A stretch of DNA of 40,000 nucleotides. Origin: Clostridium sp. OF09-36 (GTDB lineage Bacteria; Bacillota; Clostridia; Lachnospirales; Lachnospiraceae). The stretch is taken from assembly GCF_003481985.1 (NCBI RefSeq), contig NZ_QUMD01000005.1, positions 1-40,000 on the forward strand, written 5' to 3'. The first letter of the stretch is position 1; the number at the start of each line of letters is the position of its first letter. Below the pieces are notes generated by a model. That model was given only the letters and a program-made list of their open reading frames with translations, did not search any database and was not told the DNA's origin. The translations under genes were made by a program, and so were the position numbers. Of this stretch, positions 17,879-37,225 are shown in pieces.

Positions 17879-18310
17879 ATGGCAAATATTGTAACAGTTG
17901 CCGTTCCTGCGTTTATCGAAGAAAGTTCCGAGTATGATACACAATACAAAAGGACAATGAAATGGAATCCCGAAAAAGGGGATTTCGTGAGAAATGCAGC
18001 AAACCAGGTTGTGGAGTGTACCGGAGAAGAGGGCTACATGATTTGGTGCATGAAAGTATCTATGACAGAACGATATTCCTGCCTTGCATATTCCAACGAT
18101 ATAGGTGTTGAGATGGAGGACGCACTGGCGCAGGACGATGAAAAGACAGTCGAATCAATGGTGGAGCGAACCATCAGAGATGCACTGCTTGTAAATCCGA
18201 GGACTGAATGGGTGCGAGATTTCGAGTTTGAATGGAACGGCGATAGCATGAACTGCTCTTTCAAGGTTAAGGGGAAAGAGTGGGACAAAGTATTTCAAAT
18301 CAATATTTAG
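17879..18310 (+). CDS. Baseplate wedge protein (XkdS-like / gp25-W-like)
   Basis: 143 aa; synteny between the XkdR-like and Baseplate-J genes. Confidence 0.6.
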   Translation: MANIVTVAVPAFIEESSEYDTQYKRTMKWNPEKGDFVRNAANQVVECTGEEGYMIWCMKVSMTERYSCLAYSNDIGVEMEDALAQDDEKTVESMVERTIRDALLVNPRTEWVRDFEFEWNGDSMNCSFKVKGKEWDKVFQINI

Positions 18311-21121: not shown

Positions 21122-22339
21122 ATGAGCAAAATTACAGAACCGATGCTGTTGGATAAAACCGGTCAGCAGTTTCTTGGATTGATGGAGAAACAGAACGAAT
21201 TACTCACAGCGATTGCCAGTGGGTACAATTACAAACCGACTTCCATTGCAGATGTGTTTGCAGTGGTTCAGTCAGGAAATGCAAGCCAGGTTTTTAATTA
21301 TGGCGACCAGATTATTTTACCATGGACCGACAAAGCAACCGGAAAAACATATGAGTGTCCGCTTGATGTGGTACATTTTGGAGATGTCACACTTGCGGAT
21401 GGCGAAACTGTACCGGGAATGTTGGTACAGTGGCATTATGCAACGCCTTTTGGCGTGCAGTTCAACCAGTTCCAGGCGTTTAAGTATTGCGAGGAGCAGT
21501 TACCGGCAGGAACCTACAATGTCATTATCGGTGATACCTGGGGAAATAACTGCGTAAAGGGTAAAACATACCAGTTCACGCTTACGAAGCCTGTACCAGC
21601 GAAAGGACAGCTTGCAGGATTATACAGAGCACCGGATGTCAGCCCGAGCGAATGGAAAGTATATTCATTCGAGAGCAATACGGCAACAGACCCTATCGAA
21701 ACTGTAGCGATGGTGGAGGGAACAGGCGGAACCGCCCTTGGTACATTATCTTTCAAACCGACATCGCCATTGAATGGATTGCAGAGCACAGCTTACGGAT
21801 ATAACCGTTGGGCGCAGAGTGCTATGCGTCAGTGGCTTAATTCCGAAGAGGCAAACGGTAAGTGGTGGACACCACAGCACAATTTTGACCGTACACCGGA
21901 CCAGCTCAAAGAAAAGCATGGATTTCTTACCGGATTCGATGAGGAATTTACAAAGAGATTGAAAGCAACGAAAGTATCCACCTGGAAGAACACTCTTACA
22001 GACAATGGAGATACGGACGGTATTGAGGTAACTTACGATAAAGTGTTCCTGCCGAGTTTGGAGGCAATGTCAATCAATCCGCAGAAAGCTGGCGAGGACG
22101 ATGTATGGGAATACTGGAAACGTGCATCCGGTATGGCGGAGAAAATGCAGCAGTACAAGACTTATCCGCAGATTCGTACATTTGCGATTGAGAATCACAC
22201 TTCGCCGCATTACGTCCGCCTGCGCTCGGCTTATCGGGGCGCCTCGCACGGTACGTGGTATGTGTACGCCGATGGTAACGTCAACTACTACAACGCGTAC
22301 TGGGCTGTTCGCTGCGCTCCGGCTTGTTGGCTTTGCTAA
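21122..22339 (+). CDS. DGR target 1: variable receptor-binding (fibre) protein with C-terminal VR
   Basis: The 3' end (22212-22327) matches TR except almost only at TR adenines; C-terminus ...WYVYADGNVNYYNAYWAVRCAPAC is typical of lectin-fold DGR targets. Confidence 0.85.
   Translation: MSKITEPMLLDKTGQQFLGLMEKQNELLTAIASGYNYKPTSIADVFAVVQSGNASQVFNYGDQIILPWTDKATGKTYECPLDVVHFGDVTLADGETVPGMLVQWHYATPFGVQFNQFQAFKYCEEQLPAGTYNVIIGDTWGNNCVKGKTYQFTLTKPVPAKGQLAGLYRAPDVSPSEWKVYSFESNTATDPIETVAMVEGTGGTALGTLSFKPTSPLNGLQSTAYGYNRWAQSAMRQWLNSEEANGKWWTPQHNFDRTPDQLKEKHGFLTGFDEEFTKRLKATKVSTWKNTLTDNGDTDGIEVTYDKVFLPSLEAMSINPQKAGEDDVWEYWKRASGMAEKMQQYKTYPQIRTFAIENHTSPHYVRLRSAYRGASHGTWYVYADGNVNYYNAYWAVRCAPACWLC
22212..22327 (+). 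repeat. DGR variable repeat VR1
   Basis: Gap-free 116-nt alignment with TR 22867-22982; 14 mismatches by hand, 13 at TR adenines. Confidence 0.9.
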
Positions 22340-22358
22340 TCGAATAATCGTTTTAATC

Positions 22359-22380
22359 CCCGGCACCCACGGATGCCGGG
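22359..22380 (+). promoter_or_regulatory. GC-rich hairpin 3' of VR1 (DGR target-recognition-type element; also terminator-like)
   Basis: CCCGGCA-CCCACGGA-TGCCGGG followed by ATATTTTTT; 21/22 identical to 37204-37225 downstream of VR2. Confidence 0.75.
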
Positions 22381-22405
22381 ATATTTTTTGAAAGGAGGAA
22401 TCAAG

Positions 22406-22831
22406 ATGGCAGTACCAGAGGGAGAAAGACGACCATGTAAGATGGACGTATTCATGCACGAGTTGGACCTTGTGACATATACGCTCCAGATTACAAGAAA
22501 TGAGAAAATATTTCTTCCAGAATATAAAGGCTGCGTTACGGACGATATTGTGGAAACCGCAAAGAATATTTACATAGATTCATGGGACGCAAACAATATC
22601 AGAGTACAGAAACGTGGCGATAGCAACTGGGAGGAGAGGAGCCGTCTACAGTTAAGAGCCGCAAGAAATTGCAACAGGCTTTTAGCACTCATAGGCATCG
22701 CAAAATCCTCGTTTCACCTGAAATCAAAGCGTGTCAAATACTGGGTTGGTAAAGTATTAAAAATCCGGGGAATGATACGAAACTGGAATGAAAGCGATAG
22801 TGAACGCTATGCCGTAAAACAACGGAAATAG
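22406..22831 (+). CDS. avd: DGR accessory variability determinant (Avd-like)
   Basis: ~141 aa, basic, helical; lies between target and TR; ATG 22406 follows AAAGGAGG (track start 22373 is inside the hairpin). Confidence 0.7.
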   Translation: MAVPEGERRPCKMDVFMHELDLVTYTLQITRNEKIFLPEYKGCVTDDIVETAKNIYIDSWDANNIRVQKRGDSNWEERSRLQLRAARNCNRLLALIGIAKSSFHLKSKRVKYWVGKVLKIRGMIRNWNESDSERYAVKQRK

Positions 22832-22866
22832 TGTTTATTATACAGGGATGAGGACTGAAACGCAGA

Positions 22867-22982
22867 ACGTCCGCCTGCGCTCGGCTAATCGGGGCAACTC
22901 GAACAATACGTGGTATGTGAACTCCGATGGTAACGTCAACAACAACAACGCGAACTGGGCTAATCGCTGCGCTCCGGATTGT
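22867..22982 (+). repeat. DGR template repeat (TR)
   Basis: Adenine-rich (29 A in 116 nt; 12 AAC/AAT codons in the VR frame); matches VR1 and VR2; immediately upstream of the RT. Confidence 0.9.
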
Positions 22983-23083
22983 GTGGTATTTAGGACATAC
23001 GGCTGCCTCACAGAGGTGGTGCTCCGACCAATCTAACACAAGGAGTTCTTATCCTTGCCGAATGGCAAAACACCACTGTAGCG

Positions 23084-24205
23084 ATGCAGTCAGCCCTTGA
23101 AAGGACTGGTACTGCTATATACGTTATGGACAATAATTCAAATTACGTGGATAGAGAAGAGATAATCGGTTTCGATGCCTTGTACGATTCAATGATGAAA
23201 AGTAAGAAAGGGGTTACCTGGAAAGGTTCGGTTGCTCATTATGTGCTTAACAGCATGGAGGAAACTTACAAATTGAGCGAAGAGCTTGAAAAGGGAACCT
23301 ATAAAGCAAGGCCGACAACACAATTTAAGATAACATCACCGAAACCCAGGGACATAATAAGTACTTGCTTTCGGGATAGGGTATATCAGCGGAGTTTGAA
23401 TGATAACGCTCTATACCCGATTATGACAAAACAGCTCATTCGTGATAATTGGGCTTGCCAGAAAGGAAAGGGAACGGACGATGCAAGGGATAGAATGAAA
23501 ATATTTCTGCAAAGGATGTACCGGAAATATGGCACAGATTTCTATGGTTTACAATGCGACATTCATGGATATTACCCGAATATGAGGCATGACCTTACAA
23601 AAGAATTGTTCCGGGATAAACTGGACGATTGGCTGTATGAGCAGACTGCAACTGTTCTTGACGGACAGTACGCAGGGGATGTGGGATATAATCCTGGCAG
23701 CCAAATGATACAGATAGCCGGTATTACATTTCTAAGTGAGTACGACCATATGATGAGGGAGCAGACCGAAGCCGAGGATTACGGCAGATATATGGATGAT
23801 TCAACACTGTTCCATCCATCAAAAGAATATCTGGAAAACCTAAAATTGATAAATGAGAAATACCTTGCAAGCAGGGGAATGGAGTACAACTCGAAGAAAA
23901 CGAAAGTATTCAGCATTAAAGAGGGCTTTACATTCCTGGGATTCAAGTATCGGTTGACGGATACTGGAAAAGTTATCATGACAGTCAGCTCGGAGAAAGT
24001 CAAAGAAAGGCGCAGAAAGCTCCGTAAGCTGGTGAGGAAAGCCAAAAGAGGCGAAATCACAAAGGCGAAAGTAGATGACTGTTATCAAGCATGGAGGAGC
24101 CATGCGAGCAAAGGAAATTCCTTTCACCTTATACGCCGCATGGACAAATTTTACAAGAGTTTATGGAATGACCAAGAAACGGAGGTAACTGACAATGAGA
24201 ATTAA
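23084..24205 (+). CDS. DGR reverse transcriptase
   Basis: RT motifs RDRVYQRSL, QKGKGT, GYNPGSQ (DGR-type SQ motif), YMDD, FLGFKY; start uncertain (ATG 23084 or 23126, neither has a clear SD). Confidence 0.85.
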   Translation: MQSALERTGTAIYVMDNNSNYVDREEIIGFDALYDSMMKSKKGVTWKGSVAHYVLNSMEETYKLSEELEKGTYKARPTTQFKITSPKPRDIISTCFRDRVYQRSLNDNALYPIMTKQLIRDNWACQKGKGTDDARDRMKIFLQRMYRKYGTDFYGLQCDIHGYYPNMRHDLTKELFRDKLDDWLYEQTATVLDGQYAGDVGYNPGSQMIQIAGITFLSEYDHMMREQTEAEDYGRYMDDSTLFHPSKEYLENLKLINEKYLASRGMEYNSKKTKVFSIKEGFTFLGFKYRLTDTGKVIMTVSSEKVKERRRKLRKLVRKAKRGEITKAKVDDCYQAWRSHASKGNSFHLIRRMDKFYKSLWNDQETEVTDNEN

Positions 24206-29803: not shown

Positions 29804-30514
29804 ATGAAAAAGTACAGAGTAAACGAGAGCGAACATTTCAACCTGTATTCGATGCACGATAAGCTGAAATGCATCGAAATTGACATGCAGGAGGCACCGG
29901 CACACACATATACAGACGAGCAGTGGGATGAGGTCCAGGAAAGAATCAGCGAAGTCGAGGAGCTTATGGAAAAGGCGTATTGCGTGGGCGCATTGGTGGA
30001 CTGGCCAACCTTAAAGAGAATCAGGGAGATTAAAGAGGAACGGCAGTTGATGAGATACAACGCTGCATGGAACAGGGAGCATCGGAGAAAGATGCAGCAA
30101 TGGCATTTGAATTATAAAACAGTTACCCGCCCCGGAGGTACGAGGGCAGAAAGTGAGGACATACAAATGATGGCGAATATTGTAGCAATGTTTCATTCAG
30201 CACTGCATATGGATGATGGATACGTGAATCATATCGCAATAGTCCAGGACGTTGATGGATACCACAATCATTTTCTTTATGATGAGGACAAGGGAAAAGG
30301 AGCCGCAGGGACAGGACCATTCAAAACAATAGAGGATGCGAAACAGGATGTCATAGCACATTACCCTGATGCGAAAGAAAAGAAAATCTCCCCGGCAGGG
30401 TACAGGTATTACAGCACACAGCGTCCAATCATGCCGGGAGGATACCCGAAGCCAAAAATAACGAAGTCCTGGAGATTGAGAACTTCGACAATAAAAAGTT
30501 TGTTGAGGAAGTAG
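29804..30514 (+). CDS. Hypothetical early protein; probably the first part of a longer ORF 29804-30839 broken at two A-runs
   Basis: AGGAGCAGAG SD. After A5 (30454-58) the -1 frame reads NNEVLEIENFDNKKFVEEVGCQAWGYIEYKKPL..., whereas the frame-0 tail is basic junk. Confidence 0.55.
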   Translation: MKKYRVNESEHFNLYSMHDKLKCIEIDMQEAPAHTYTDEQWDEVQERISEVEELMEKAYCVGALVDWPTLKRIREIKEERQLMRYNAAWNREHRRKMQQWHLNYKTVTRPGGTRAESEDIQMMANIVAMFHSALHMDDGYVNHIAIVQDVDGYHNHFLYDEDKGKGAAGTGPFKTIEDAKQDVIAHYPDAKEKKISPAGYRYYSTQRPIMPGGYPKPKITKSWRLRTSTIKSLLRK

Positions 30515-36316: not shown

Positions 36317-37183
36317 ATGAGTATCAATTCAATCAGATTAAGTGCATACGGATTCCGTATGGAGGCAGTAGGCAGCAAGAAGTTTATCAAGAGGGAAAGA
36401 GATGCGTTTCTGGAATTTGCGGCAGGAAGAGTAAACGAAACGGCACAGAAATTAGCAGAGGCAGTATGCGCAGAACCGTTGCATCCATTTTGCAACTGCG
36501 CCATGCCTGGTGTGGATTCGGACCAGGAGCATGAAAAGTCAAAAGATACCGGAAAAGAGCTGAACATCACACATAAATACAAGAAAACATTTACGCTGGA
36601 TGAATTAAGAGCACTTATCAGAAACGGAGAAATCCAGAACCATGTTTCGGTTGGAGATACAATCTGGATTATGTTTGACGGAAAAGAGGTTCCATACGAT
36701 GTTATCGGCTTTGATGTGGAGGAACTTGCGGACAAAACGCTTGACCATAGCATGACAATCCAGGCTCATGTAGCGATTGAGGCGAGAGAGTTCGATACAA
36801 AAGGAGATTACGGCAGTAATGTATGGGCGGATTCCGAGCTGAGAGAATATTTACAGAGTGATGAGTTCAAAGAAAGATTTGCAGACCTCATTCCTTACCT
36901 GGCAAAAGTGAAGAAAAACAACAGCAATGGAGAACAGACAGAAGATTTGTTTTTCCTACTCTCAAAAGAGGAGTTCGACCCGGAGGAAACACCATACGAA
37001 TTTTATGAAAATAAGGCGAACAGAGTGAAATTCACAGAGGATGGCAACACCTGCCGACACTGGACCCGCTCGGCTCTTCGGGGCACCTCGTACCTTACGT
37101 GGTATGTGTACTCCGATGGTTACGTCCACGGCTACACCGCGTACTGGGCGTTTCGCTGCGCTCCGGCTTGTACCATTGCATAG
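36317..37183 (+). CDS. DGR target 2: remote variable protein, shorter paralog of the fibre target
   Basis: ATG 36317 after AGGAGGA; C-terminal VR matches TR; shares the GDxI..Y.V.GFD..LAD and N.WA.S.LR..L.S motifs with 21122-22339. Confidence 0.8.
   Translation: MSINSIRLSAYGFRMEAVGSKKFIKRERDAFLEFAAGRVNETAQKLAEAVCAEPLHPFCNCAMPGVDSDQEHEKSKDTGKELNITHKYKKTFTLDELRALIRNGEIQNHVSVGDTIWIMFDGKEVPYDVIGFDVEELADKTLDHSMTIQAHVAIEAREFDTKGDYGSNVWADSELREYLQSDEFKERFADLIPYLAKVKKNNSNGEQTEDLFFLLSKEEFDPEETPYEFYENKANRVKFTEDGNTCRHWTRSALRGTSYLTWYVYSDGYVHGYTAYWAFRCAPACTIA
37067..37171 (+). repeat. DGR variable repeat VR2
   Basis: Gap-free 105-nt alignment with TR 22878-22982; 18 mismatches by hand, 17 at TR adenines. 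Confidence 0.85.
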
Positions 37184-37203: not shown

Positions 37204-37225
37204 CCCGGCACCCATGGATGCCGGG
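37204..37225 (+). promoter_or_regulatory. GC-rich hairpin 3' of VR2
   Basis: CCCGGCA-CCCATGGA-TGCCGGG, 32 nt after the end of VR2; near-identical to 22359-22380. Confidence 0.75.

Follow-up and report, generated by a model that had tools for sequence, protein, structure and literature searches.

Evidence for a complete diversity-generating retroelement with two DUF6273 targets in a PBSX-like human-gut myophage

Results

Gene order and features of the locus

The window, the whole stretch of 40,000 nt that was analysed, showed the local gene order baseplate J, P2 I/gp48, fibre, target, Avd, template repeat (TR) and reverse transcriptase (RT). A sequence-only reading had proposed a complete diversity-generating retroelement (DGR) with the order target, avd, TR and RT at 21122-24205. 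This order was borne out, and the element was larger than had been noted (Table 1). The ORF of target gene 1 had been delimited correctly. The PBSX-like context was also recovered, with contractile-tail sheath, tube, tape measure, baseplate J, Mu gp48, a tail-collar fibre N-terminus and XkdX. The host of the phage is probably a Lachnospiraceae bacterium.

Beyond the parts named in that reading, a second target gene, conserved hairpins and structured spacer RNA were observed. Target gene 2 encoded a DUF6273 protein paralogous to target 1 but smaller (BLASTP against target 1, 9e-15; Pfam DUF6273, 5.5e-12). It was located on the same strand among early and replication genes, between a primase-like gene and SSB, and its end formed VR2, 14 kb downstream of the main element.

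Table 1. Coordinates of the retroelement, its RNA features and its two targets in the window
Feature	Position	Strand	Basis or remark
Target gene 1	21122..22339	+	405 aa; Pfam DUF6273 1.2e-14
VR1	22206..22327	+	TR alignment and comparison of near-identical genome copies
Hairpin CCCGGCACCCACGGATGCCGGG	22359..22380	+	32 nt after VR1, then T-run
avd	22406..22831	+	141 aa, pI 9.7; PHROG 3206 'Avd protein of DGR' 5.3e-9
5' arm of long-range RNA duplex	22845..22856	+	Pairs with 23044-23056, enclosing TR; RNAalifold
TR	22861..22982	+	Repeat alignment and comparison of public copies
Spacer (Sp) RNA, TR to RT	22983..23146	+	Covariation in several helices
Spacer stem-loop	23002-23020	+	Covarying
Invariant spacer segment ACCAATCTAACACAAGGAG	23027-23045	+	
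3' arm of long-range duplex	23044-23056	+	
Spacer stem-loop, then A-run	23055-23068	+	Covarying
Spacer hairpin	23076-23129	+	
DGR reverse transcriptase	23084..24205	+	Maximal ORF 373 aa; Pfam RVT_1; PHROG 1423 8e-74
Target gene 2	36317..37183	+	288 aa from ATG 36317 (AGGAGG RBS); ORF open from 36191
VR2	37067..37171	+	Matches TR 22878-22982
Hairpin CCCGGCACCCATGGATGCCGGG	37204..37225	+	33 nt after VR2, without T-run

Template repeat and variable repeats

Machine alignment of TR 22867-22982 with VR1 22212-22327 reproduced the earlier hand alignment. It was gapless, with 14 mismatches in 116 nt. Thirteen of these were located at TR adenines, of which the TR has 29, and one was a change of T22923 to G (Fisher exact test for adenine bias, p = 1.5e-8). 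The repeat search extended the pair to 122 nt (22861-22982 and 22206-22327), beginning 6 nt further 5' than noted, with 16 mismatches, 14 at A. Read in the VR frame, the TR gave NVRLRSANRGNSNNTWYVNSDGNVNNNNANWANRCAPDC. The 12 Asn codons counted in this string were confirmed, and a 13th (22866-22868) just upstream was likewise mutagenised. None of the 13 AAY codons gives access to a stop codon; together with three other A-containing codons, they represent a potential peptide diversity of about 1e17 without a stop codon. VR2 differed from TR 22878-22982 at 18 positions, 17 at TR adenines and one with T changed to G.

The adenine-mutagenised span of the TR covered 22866-22963 and was followed by an A-free, GC-rich block at 22964-22977. 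In VR1, the mutable part comprised approximately 22211-22308, and the A-free, GC-rich, IMH-like 3' end at 22309-22327 was TCGCTGCGCTCCGGCTTGT. A 3' boundary of the IMH/IMH* type was present: TCGCTGCGCTCCGG was invariant in the TR and all VRs and was followed by a TR-specific difference. A22978 was specific to the TR, with C in 12 of 12 VR copies, and the homology stopped 4 nt further on.

Variation among natural copies

The public comparison comprised 16 near-identical copies, 11 of them with an unchanged TR. The TR was 100% identical in these 11, one of which was only 96.5% identical overall. Ten VR1 and two VR2 copies, taken from the public copies and the window and all sharing an identical TR, were pooled. 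At non-A positions, 6 of 186 changes were found, so that 97% of the differences were located at template adenines, and 29 of 31 TR adenines varied. Each of the ten VR1 copies was distinct, differing at positions facing TR adenines. Changes from A to G accounted for 83 of the 168 non-fixed VR changes. In natural populations the TR was thus invariant and VR1 hypervariable. At the protein level, the target 1 cluster at 90% identity held 10,311 distinct sequences, and the hypervariable columns among 17 cluster members were exactly the TR-A codons. Because 180 substitutions were found at TR adenines and 6 elsewhere across the 12 VR copies, the differences between assemblies indicate that the DGR has recently been active.

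The same phage was present in GenBank as MT835491.1 (UNVERIFIED Bacteriophage sp. scaffold_33; human faeces, Mexico), an unannotated record with 98.9% identity over 38 kb and with TR, avd and RT identical to those of the window. Over 9.5 kb, with 99.7% identity, 16 of 26 substitutions and a 3-nt insertion (one extra codon) were located within VR1, and none in the TR. Its VR2 showed 13 differences from the TR, all at TR-A, and differed from the VR2 of the window. Changes in both VRs between genomes this close, an unchanged TR, a different VR1 in every copy and the size of the protein cluster make it very unlikely that the element is a fossil, with a real TR/VR relation, no present activity here, and VR differences that are old polymorphisms sorted by recombination. 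The DGR had also kept all its parts intact, namely avd, the TR, the two hairpins and an RT ORF that encodes YMDD. In favour of a fossil, the window itself gave no sign of activity, and no variation was seen among reads when Faecalibacterium phage Lelie, with the same kind of DUF6273 target pair, was induced experimentally (PMC11792537).

Reverse transcriptase and Avd

The conserved start of the RT probably lies 3' of position 23084, either at ATG 23126 or at GTG 23147, giving approximately 352 aa. The motifs QKGKGT, GYNPGSQ and YMDD listed in the sequence-only reading were all present, but GYNPGSQ was out of register with canonical GxxxSQ. The motif 4 region reads GYNPGSQMIQ and the canonical form is [LIV]GxxxSQ; the in-register segment is PGSQMIQ, within N-P-G-S-Q-M-I-Q. 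Relative to the Bordetella enzyme bRT, G182 and Q187 were kept, I181 was replaced by Pro, and S186, the Ser of 'SQ', by Ile or Val. All of the 120 closest RT homologues shared the variant G[YF]NPGSQ[ML][IV]Q. The RT clade with these residues may differ in its misincorporation spectrum, a possibility raised by the share of A-to-G changes noted above.

By its search scores, the RT sided with phage DGR RTs rather than with those of group II introns, retrons or defence systems. In phmmer searches against labelled DGR and group II references, scores were 258 bits for nd12, 178 for Shimadzu, 163 for Brigit, 144 for Lelie, 125 for VP585 and 58 for BPP-1 Brt. Group II RTs reached at most 49 bits and were aligned only over fingers and palm. 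The length and C-terminus of the RT matched DGR RTs, and its top PDB match was bRT (8ub7_A), aligned end to end. The single-sequence PDB search was nearly tied, with 5.7e-15 for bRT and 9.1e-15 for a group II maturase. The best NCBIfam match was also a group II intron RT model (TIGR04416), with 83 bits where the cut-off is 300, and several DRT models matched weakly, among them Drt3a (33 bits, cut-off 200) and Drt5 (21 bits, cut-off 550). These values were well under the cut-offs. Among the 25 PADLOC matches listed, RT_II-A was the sole retron model (27.7 bits), and one metagenome source labelled an RT homologue as 'retron-type'. No maturase or endonuclease domain or C-terminal extension was found on the RT, no intron RNA or msr/msd was detected, and Rfam gave no match. 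An RT of another class (group II intron, retron or DRT/Abi), with TR and VR as products of ordinary duplication or of gene conversion among fibre paralogues, is therefore extremely improbable; under gene conversion, one copy would not stay invariant, nor would 97% of the differences face template adenines.

The basic helical ORF in the avd position, adjoining the TR, was identified as a divergent Avd-like four-helix bundle. Its AF2 model (pLDDT 88) showed four helices. Foldseek matched it to 2gsc, 2rld and the Avd chains of 4dwl and 8ub7, with target-normalised TM of 0.77-0.89. For the 4dwl and 8ub7 Avd chains the range was 0.77-0.85, with an rmsd of 2.2-2.5 A. The Avd sequence had no match in Pfam, NCBIfam or PDB sequences, profile search included.

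Hairpins and spacer RNA

The hairpins after VR1 and VR2 were identical except for one loop base. The same hairpin was present after the VRs of related DGRs with RTs 66-71% identical, and no such hairpin was found 3' of the TR. The hairpin after VR1 is a candidate DGR target-recognition hairpin or cruciform. It is plausibly an intrinsic terminator as well, since a T-run follows.

Covariation in the RNA was calculated from only about five independent lineages and was observed in several helices. The long-range duplex around the TR comprised 12 pairs, four of them with compensatory changes; 95% of cells were paired, compared with 39-46% in slid controls, and RNAalifold predicted the duplex independently. 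A putative priming duplex between the TR 3' end and the spacer lacked covariation support because it lies in invariant sequence, with two alternative predicted registers. The spacer RNA matched no Rfam family. For BPP-1, a 'cPRT Stop' duplex, an adjacent stem-loop followed by adenosines and an Avd-binding stem-loop have been described, with such elements predicted in 207 of 278 DGRs (bioRxiv 10.1101/2023.10.23.563531). By comparison with this published description rather than by structural alignment, the helices around the TR in the window appear to correspond to the BPP-1 elements.

Target proteins

In target 1, a helix at the N-terminus and a beta-rich central domain preceded the C-type-lectin-like DUF6273 domain, which formed the C-terminus and ended in VR1. 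The sole PDB fold match of its AF2 model (pLDDT 90) was the DUF6273 N-terminal domain of the T. ramosa IgA peptidase (9qa6; Foldseek E 2.5e-6), which has been solved as a C-type lectin-like core (PMC12237041). This match of a predicted model lends indirect support to the earlier suggestion of a lectin-like C-terminus. VR1 is thus carried on a C-type-lectin-like fold of the target protein; VRs of DGRs are typically displayed on a C-type lectin or Ig fold.

By analogy, target 1 is plausibly the receptor-binding protein at the tip of the tail fibre. Mtd, the paradigm DGR target, is a C-type-lectin-fold receptor binder. Target 1 was located directly 3' of baseplate J, a gp48/P2-I-like protein and a protein with a tail-collar fibre N-terminus, the same position as in related myophages, and the BFVD fold matches to its domain include a 'tail-collar fiber protein'. 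The position beside fibre genes is circumstantial, and a real DGR whose target 1 does not bind a host receptor, while unlikely, retains appreciable weight. DUF6273 proteins may bind mucus, environmental or immune ligands or, as may hold for target 2, be non-virion. The function of DUF6273 targets was left open in published work (PMC10743442, PMC11792537), and in the T. ramosa IgA peptidase the domain was dispensable for activity and had no defined ligand (PMC12237041). The location of target 2 among early and replication genes points in the same direction, as does its lack of an obvious signal peptide.

It is doubtful that target 2 is a non-structural, early-expressed, DGR-diversified binder rather than a virion receptor-binding protein. 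Its VR and homing hairpin were maintained, and the sequence differences suggest that VR2 has been rewritten recently.

Comparison with known DGRs

The DGR of Bordetella phage BPP-1 (mtd-avd-TR-brt) is the paradigm of these elements. The window element shared with it the order target, avd, TR, spacer and RT, the adenine-specific transfer from TR to VR and a target of C-type lectin fold that carries the VR at its 3' terminus. In both, the TR and VR have a GC-rich block free of A at their 3' ends, directly behind which the TR-specific differences start, and the VR is followed by a hairpin. The TR is enclosed by a long-range duplex in both, and the spacer, some 140-160 nt long, contains a stem-loop directly 3' of the TR. 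The Avd folds matched with a TM of about 0.8-0.85 and the RTs aligned end to end. In contrast, the RTs shared only about 58 bits, Avd had no detectable sequence similarity, and the palm of the window RT differed at the I181 and S186 positions of bRT. The window target was a DUF6273 protein instead of Mtd, without beta-prism or beta-sandwich trimer domains, and the element had two targets, one of them non-adjacent. The window hairpins were located 32-33 nt after the VR, whereas that of BPP-1 follows the IMH immediately. The window phage is a myovirus of Bacillota and BPP-1 a podovirus of Bordetella.

Roseburia phage Shimadzu (LR596903) is also a Lachnospiraceae myophage, with the order baseplate J, P2 I-like, fibre/target, Avd, TR, RT, small ORFs and endolysin. 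Of its 18 TR/VR mismatches, 17 were at A, and a hairpin of other sequence occupied the same position, about 37 nt after the VR. The RT was only 33% identical, and the TR, spacer and hairpin sequences were unrelated. According to a report cited in PMC11792537, the Shimadzu DGR acts on two proteins, one of the tail and the other without a known function.

The Faecalibacterium phages Lelie and CP11 and the gut phages nd4 and nd12 likewise carry two-target DGRs with DUF6273 targets, one target being large and the other small, and their VR maps to the DUF6273 C-terminus (PMC11792537). The closest named RT was that of nd12 (39% identity). In these phages the targets are located downstream of the RT, and nd4 and nd12 each have as one target a 'tentaclin', whose VR is N-terminal. 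In the window, by contrast, target 1 precedes avd, and target 2 is found among the early genes at a distance of 14 kb.

Discussion

The element at 21122-24205 is very likely a complete DGR of a temperate PBSX-like human-gut myophage that diversifies two DUF6273 paralogues from one template. The sequence-only reading had set two conditions for its own rejection, mismatches lacking an adenine bias and an RT clustering with retron or group II intron RTs; both were examined, and each outcome favoured a DGR. A mechanism can be outlined by analogy with BPP-1. The transcript from the avd 3' end through the TR into the spacer of about 160 nt would fold so that the long-range duplex encloses the TR, with the first spacer stem-loop just downstream, and the RT-Avd complex would bind this folded TR RNA. 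Synthesis of cDNA would be cis-primed from the spacer and begin within the GC-rich block free of A, 5' of A22978, which only the TR has. The RT would be faithful at C, G and U and misincorporate opposite adenines. The adenine-mutagenised cDNA would then replace VR1 and, from TR 22878 onward, VR2, presumably guided by the common GC-rich 3' end and the near-identical hairpin downstream of each VR. The absence of the hairpin from the TR would keep the transfer one-way.

If the doubtful reading of target 2 as a non-structural binder were true, the phage would hypermutate a cytoplasmic or non-tail protein, for example one tracking a variable host factor or defence component. All features of the element agree with published knowledge; DUF6273 targets, non-adjacent targets and indels in AAC tracts have all been described previously. 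DGRs are already known to be common among gut phages, and the present element represents a well-documented example.

Template and variable repeats

The template repeat (TR) and the first variable repeat (VR1) of the diversity-generating retroelement (DGR) were compared by computed ungapped alignment. VR1 22212-22327 and TR 22867-22982 differed at 14 of 116 nt. Thirteen of these mismatches faced one of the 29 TR adenines and the remaining one was T22923 to G, exactly as counted by hand in the sequence-only reading. Fisher's exact test gave p = 1.5e-8 for the adenine bias. A repeat search of the window lengthened the pair to 122 nt, adding 6 nt with two further mismatches, G22865 to T and A22866 to T. 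The G22865 change adjoins a mutagenised adenine, and rare non-adenine changes tend to neighbour A sites. The G22865 change makes residue 363 of target 1 a His in the window, against Gln in 16 other members of its protein cluster. Translated in the VR frame, the TR reads NVRLRSANRGNSNNTWYVNSDGNVNNNNANWANRCAPDC. It holds 13 AAY codons, and A-to-N changes reach no stop codon. The theoretical peptide repertoire was about 1.25e17 for VR1 and 8.3e15 for VR2.

This second variable repeat was found by scanning the whole window with the TR, reading A as N, which gave a third repeat copy at 37056. Compared with TR 22878-22982, VR2 had 18 mismatches, 17 of them at adenines. The ORF whose 3' end is VR2 is open from 36191; its likely start is ATG 36317, after an AGGAGG site, for a product of 288 aa. 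This product, target 2, is smaller than target 1 and paralogous to it (BLASTP 9e-15), and carries the DUF6273 domain common to target 1 (Pfam, 5.5e-12). The target 2 gene is found 14 kb downstream of the TR, in a stretch of early and replication genes that includes a primase-like PHROG and an SSB. Such an arrangement is not novel. Non-adjacent targets within the same prophage were described by Wu et al. 2018 (PMC5758913) and are common for prophage DGRs within 50 kb. Two-target DGRs with a large and a small DUF6273 target have also been published for the phages Lelie and CP11 (PMC11792537) and nd4 and nd12 (PMC10743442).

Among 50 distinct TR/VR pairs of this DGR clade, the VR was longer than its own TR in 12, by 3 nt (11 cases) or 6 nt (one case), and shorter in none. 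The extra bases always fell within the AAC repeat tract. The loci concerned were L001, L004, L009, L028, L029, L032, L041, L055, L057, L060, L063 and L067, all public contigs bearing copies or relatives of this DGR. The insertions fit slippage of the reverse transcriptase (RT), a reading that leaves their one-sided bias unexplained. They are not new, as in-frame indels at AAC repeats were attributed to RT slippage by Wu et al. 2018 (PMC5758913) and revisited in PMC12875486.

Coordinates of features in the window
Feature	Position	Remark
Target 1 ORF	21122-22339	405 aa
VR1	22206-22327	122 nt
(AAC)4 tract of VR1	22283-22294	
Hairpin after VR1	22359-22380	
VR1 G-to-T change opposite TR G22865	22363-22365	VR1 position 22210
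avd ORF	22406-22831	141 aa
Long-range duplex, first strand	22845-22856	12 bp, just upstream of TR
TR	22861-22982	122 nt
(AAC)4 tract of TR	22938-22949	
Spacer between TR and RT	22983-23146	
Stem-loop	23002-23020	20 nt past TR
Long-range duplex, second strand	23044-23056	
Spacer hairpin	23076-23129	
RT ORF	23084-24205	
ORF with DarA_C match	29804-30514 (+)	236 aa
Target 2 ORF	36317-37183	288 aa
VR2	37067-37171	
Hairpin after VR2	37204-37225	

Signs of recent activity in public copies

The phage is already public in GenBank as MT835491.1, an unannotated 'UNVERIFIED Bacteriophage sp.' record from human faeces with 98.9% identity over 38 kb. Between window positions 18000 and 27500, the two sequences differed by 26 substitutions. 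Sixteen of these and a 3-nt insertion were inside VR1, and none was in the TR, avd or RT. VR2 also differed, and that of MT835491 departed from the TR at TR-adenine positions only. Exact-pattern scans for the TR 3' end retrieved 3 viral and 12 human-gut metagenome contigs. Among 185,579 reference genomes scanned, none contained the exact TR. The 122-nt TR was identical in 11 public copies, including one that was 96.5% identical overall (L003), and each of the 10 recoverable VR1 copies was different. Pooled with two VR2 copies, they carried 180 substitutions facing TR adenines and 6 at other sites, and 29 of the 31 TR adenines varied. TR A22978 was C in all 12 VRs. The 90%-identity protein cluster of target 1 comprised 10,311 distinct sequences, and among 17 members the hypervariable columns were exactly the TR-A codons, residues 364-396. 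The population heterogeneity proposed as a check in the sequence-only reading was thus examined across assemblies, not reads, and variation was seen at TR-A positions. In nature the TR stays invariant and the VRs change, with dozens of independently rewritten VRs for one TR in public data.

Some copies were structurally different. In three independent low-coverage human-gut metagenome assemblies (L005, L007 and L010), VR1 and TR were merged into a single repeat copy (window 22206-22982), and the 655 bp between them, including avd, were absent. Assembly may have collapsed the 122-bp repeat, or VR1 and TR may really have recombined with loss of avd. Contig L015 aligned to window 22894-24106 only. 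Its TR 3' half (from GTCAACAACAACAAC on), spacer and RT matched the window, and its TR 5' half was a different sequence encoding NWWLRSPNASNSNNFVNVNTDGT. This mosaic TR suggests recombination between related DGR templates. Divergence of MT835491 outside the DGR was clustered. There were 226 differences at 2-4 kb of the window, where the head-morphogenesis region precedes the major head protein gene, and at 37-40 kb there were 122, with rearrangements. The first two kilobases held 11-13 differences and the others mostly 0-7. This unevenness suggests mosaic recombination outside the DGR.

Reverse transcriptase, Avd and target proteins

The ORFs and motifs named in the sequence-only reading were present in the window. 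The RT matched Pfam RVT_1 and PHROG 1423 (8e-74). Its best match among solved structures was the Bordetella phage bRT (8ub7_A, residues 11-323 of 328), with a group II maturase nearly tied by E-value. Phmmer searches against labelled references favoured the DGR RTs (nd12 258 bits, Shimadzu 178, Brigit 163, Lelie 144, VP585 125 and BPP-1 Brt 58) over three group II intron RTs (49 bits, 36 bits and no match). The NCBIfam group II model scored 83 bits against a cut-off of 300, and DRT and retron models were far below threshold. No maturase or endonuclease domain was present, the protein ending where DGR RTs end. The RT was thus placed among DGR RTs, as proposed, and not with group II or retron RTs. 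The segment GYNPGSQ named in the sequence-only reading is out of register with the canonical motif 4, [LIV]GxxxSQ, and was rejected as that motif. The 25-residue spacing to YMDD and the HMMER and MAFFT alignments set MIQ against TSQ, so that P-G-S-Q-M-I-Q faces bRT I181-G-S-L-T-S-Q187. In this register Gly and Gln are conserved, Pro takes the I181 position and the Ser of SQ is replaced by Ile. The variant G[YF]NPGSQ[ML][IV]Q was conserved in all 120 closest RT homologues. In bRT, I181, G182 and Q187 touch the template base and incoming dNTP (10.1101/2023.10.23.563531).

The conserved spacer hairpin overlaps the RT ORF over its first 14-21 codons (window 23084-23147). In alignments, homologues begin opposite GTG 23147 or ATG 23126, and their coverage of the ORF is about 91%. 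Together these alignments and the overlap indicate that the annotated start probably lies too far upstream. No Shine-Dalgarno sequence preceded any candidate RT start.

Avd (pI 9.7) matched PHROG 3206, 'Avd protein of DGR' (5.3e-9). It had no match in Pfam, NCBIfam or PDB sequences as a single sequence, nor in the PDB as a 35-sequence profile. PDB sequence searches with Avd and target 1 retrieved only a spurious TIM at E 1.5, so fold searches were needed. The AF2 model of Avd was a four-helix bundle (pLDDT 88). Its best PDB fold matches were the Avd-like 2gsc and 2rld, followed by Bordetella Avd (4dwl and 8ub7 chains), with target-normalised TM of 0.77-0.89.

The only significant PDB fold match of the target 1 model (pLDDT 90) was the T. 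ramosa IgA peptidase (9qa6, E 2.5e-6), whose N-terminal domain is DUF6273 (PMC12402451). [quoted passage not shown] Foldseek against the PDB did not retrieve Mtd, TvpA or FGE, so the lectin assignment of target 1 is indirect, via 9qa6 and the literature. BFVD matches came from many uncultured phages and were DUF6273 proteins, one of them annotated as a tail-collar fibre. Target 1 is a candidate receptor-binding protein.

Cis elements and RNA structure

The TR and all VRs share the A-free, GC-rich block TCGCTGCGCTCCGG. In the TR the block is followed by A, in each VR by C, and homology stops 4 nt on. This 3' boundary is an IMH/IMH* arrangement. The hairpin CCCGGCACCCAYGGATGCCGGG lies 32 nt past VR1 and 33 nt past VR2 and nowhere else in the window, the TR being without any. 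The VR1 hairpin is followed by a T-run, fitting a terminator pattern, and the VR2 hairpin is not. DGRs with RTs only 66-71% identical also have this hairpin after their VRs, with a different intervening sequence. In the Roseburia phage Shimadzu, a hairpin of other sequence stands at a similar distance from the VR.

For the RNA, about five lineages obtained from two further pattern scans were compared with RNAalifold and explicit pair counting. A long-range duplex connects the region just upstream of the TR with the spacer. Four of its pairs were compensatory, and 95% of cells were paired compared with 39-46% in slid controls. It is followed by a GAAT-loop stem-loop and an A-run. The stem-loop 20 nt past the TR had four covarying pairs, and the spacer hairpin was likewise supported across these lineages. 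The whole-fold MFE of the TR-spacer RNA was not more stable than that of shuffled sequences (z = -0.33), and the structure emerged from comparative analysis only. No Rfam family matched this RNA. Two alternative registers of pairing are predicted between the TR 3' end and the invariant spacer motif ACCAATCTAACACAAGGAG, and the TR-only A22978 is part of one of them. Both lie in invariant sequence and hence without deciding covariation, and neither is claimed as the priming register. Compared with the BPP-1 ribonucleoprotein, the window RNA has counterparts to the 'cPRT Stop' duplex, the adjacent stem-loop followed by adenosines and the Avd-binding stem-loop. BPP-1-type RNA elements were predicted in 207 of 278 DGRs (10.1101/2023.10.23.563531).

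Phage context and host

The DGR is surrounded by a PBSX-like contractile-tail module. Genes were ordered sheath, tube, tape measure, LysM protein, baseplate wedge, baseplate J, Mu gp48-like, tail-collar fibre N-terminus, DGR and XkdX, with an endolysin later. Shimadzu has the same order as the window: baseplate J, P2 I, fibre target, Avd, TR and RT. The cassette of target, avd, TR, RT, small ORF and XkdX recurs in related myophages. A 41-kb Logan contig (L031, SRR31228062) had this cassette, with a DUF6273 target, in a very different backbone with a P22/SU10-type portal, three S74-peptidase fibre genes and a giant polyvalent protein. Its presence in a P22-type-portal backbone as well as in myophages indicates that the DGR moves as a module between phage types. 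Contigs carrying cluster members reached 326 kb, a size that suggests a prophage. An RT-based scan retrieved only a 1.3-kb Lachnospiraceae MAG contig as the sole host hint, so the host assignment is weak. The 236-aa ORF had a sub-threshold match to Pfam DarA_C, defence against restriction (4.9e-5, 24 bits against a cut-off of 27, 19 residues), which is probably not meaningful.

Proposed mechanism and significance

No natural system known diversifies proteins more powerfully than DGRs, and gut phages very commonly carry them. By analogy with BPP-1, for which it is established, standard mutagenic retrohoming is the best explanation for this locus. cDNA synthesis would be cis-primed from the spacer and initiate in the GC-rich block upstream of A22978. 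The RT would misincorporate opposite adenines, and the shared 3' block and the hairpin downstream of each VR would guide the cDNA as it replaces VR1 and VR2. The analysis directly demonstrates the anatomy, the adenine specificity, the natural asymmetry between TR and VRs, the family placements and the RNA covariation, whereas the priming site, the hairpin's role and receptor binding are inferred.

Given the public phage sequence and the published two-target, non-adjacent and AAC-indel cases, the locus belongs to a known kind and is well supported. It yields no new principle and is an unusually clean natural example, with an invariant TR and many rewritten VRs, two targets of which one is non-adjacent, an identical hairpin after both VRs and covarying RNA. 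Modest additions are an Avd family missed by current Pfam and NCBIfam, a conserved natural RT palm variant, the second target among early genes and, from the comparison of lineages, support for RNA elements like those of BPP-1 in the DGR of a Bacillota phage. The Avd family and palm variant could serve annotation pipelines and the engineering of DGR-based mutagenesis tools. The covarying RNA around the TR agrees with the solved ribonucleoprotein architecture of the distant DGR from Bordetella phage, which supports conservation of the priming and termination RNA architecture in Bacillota-phage DGRs.
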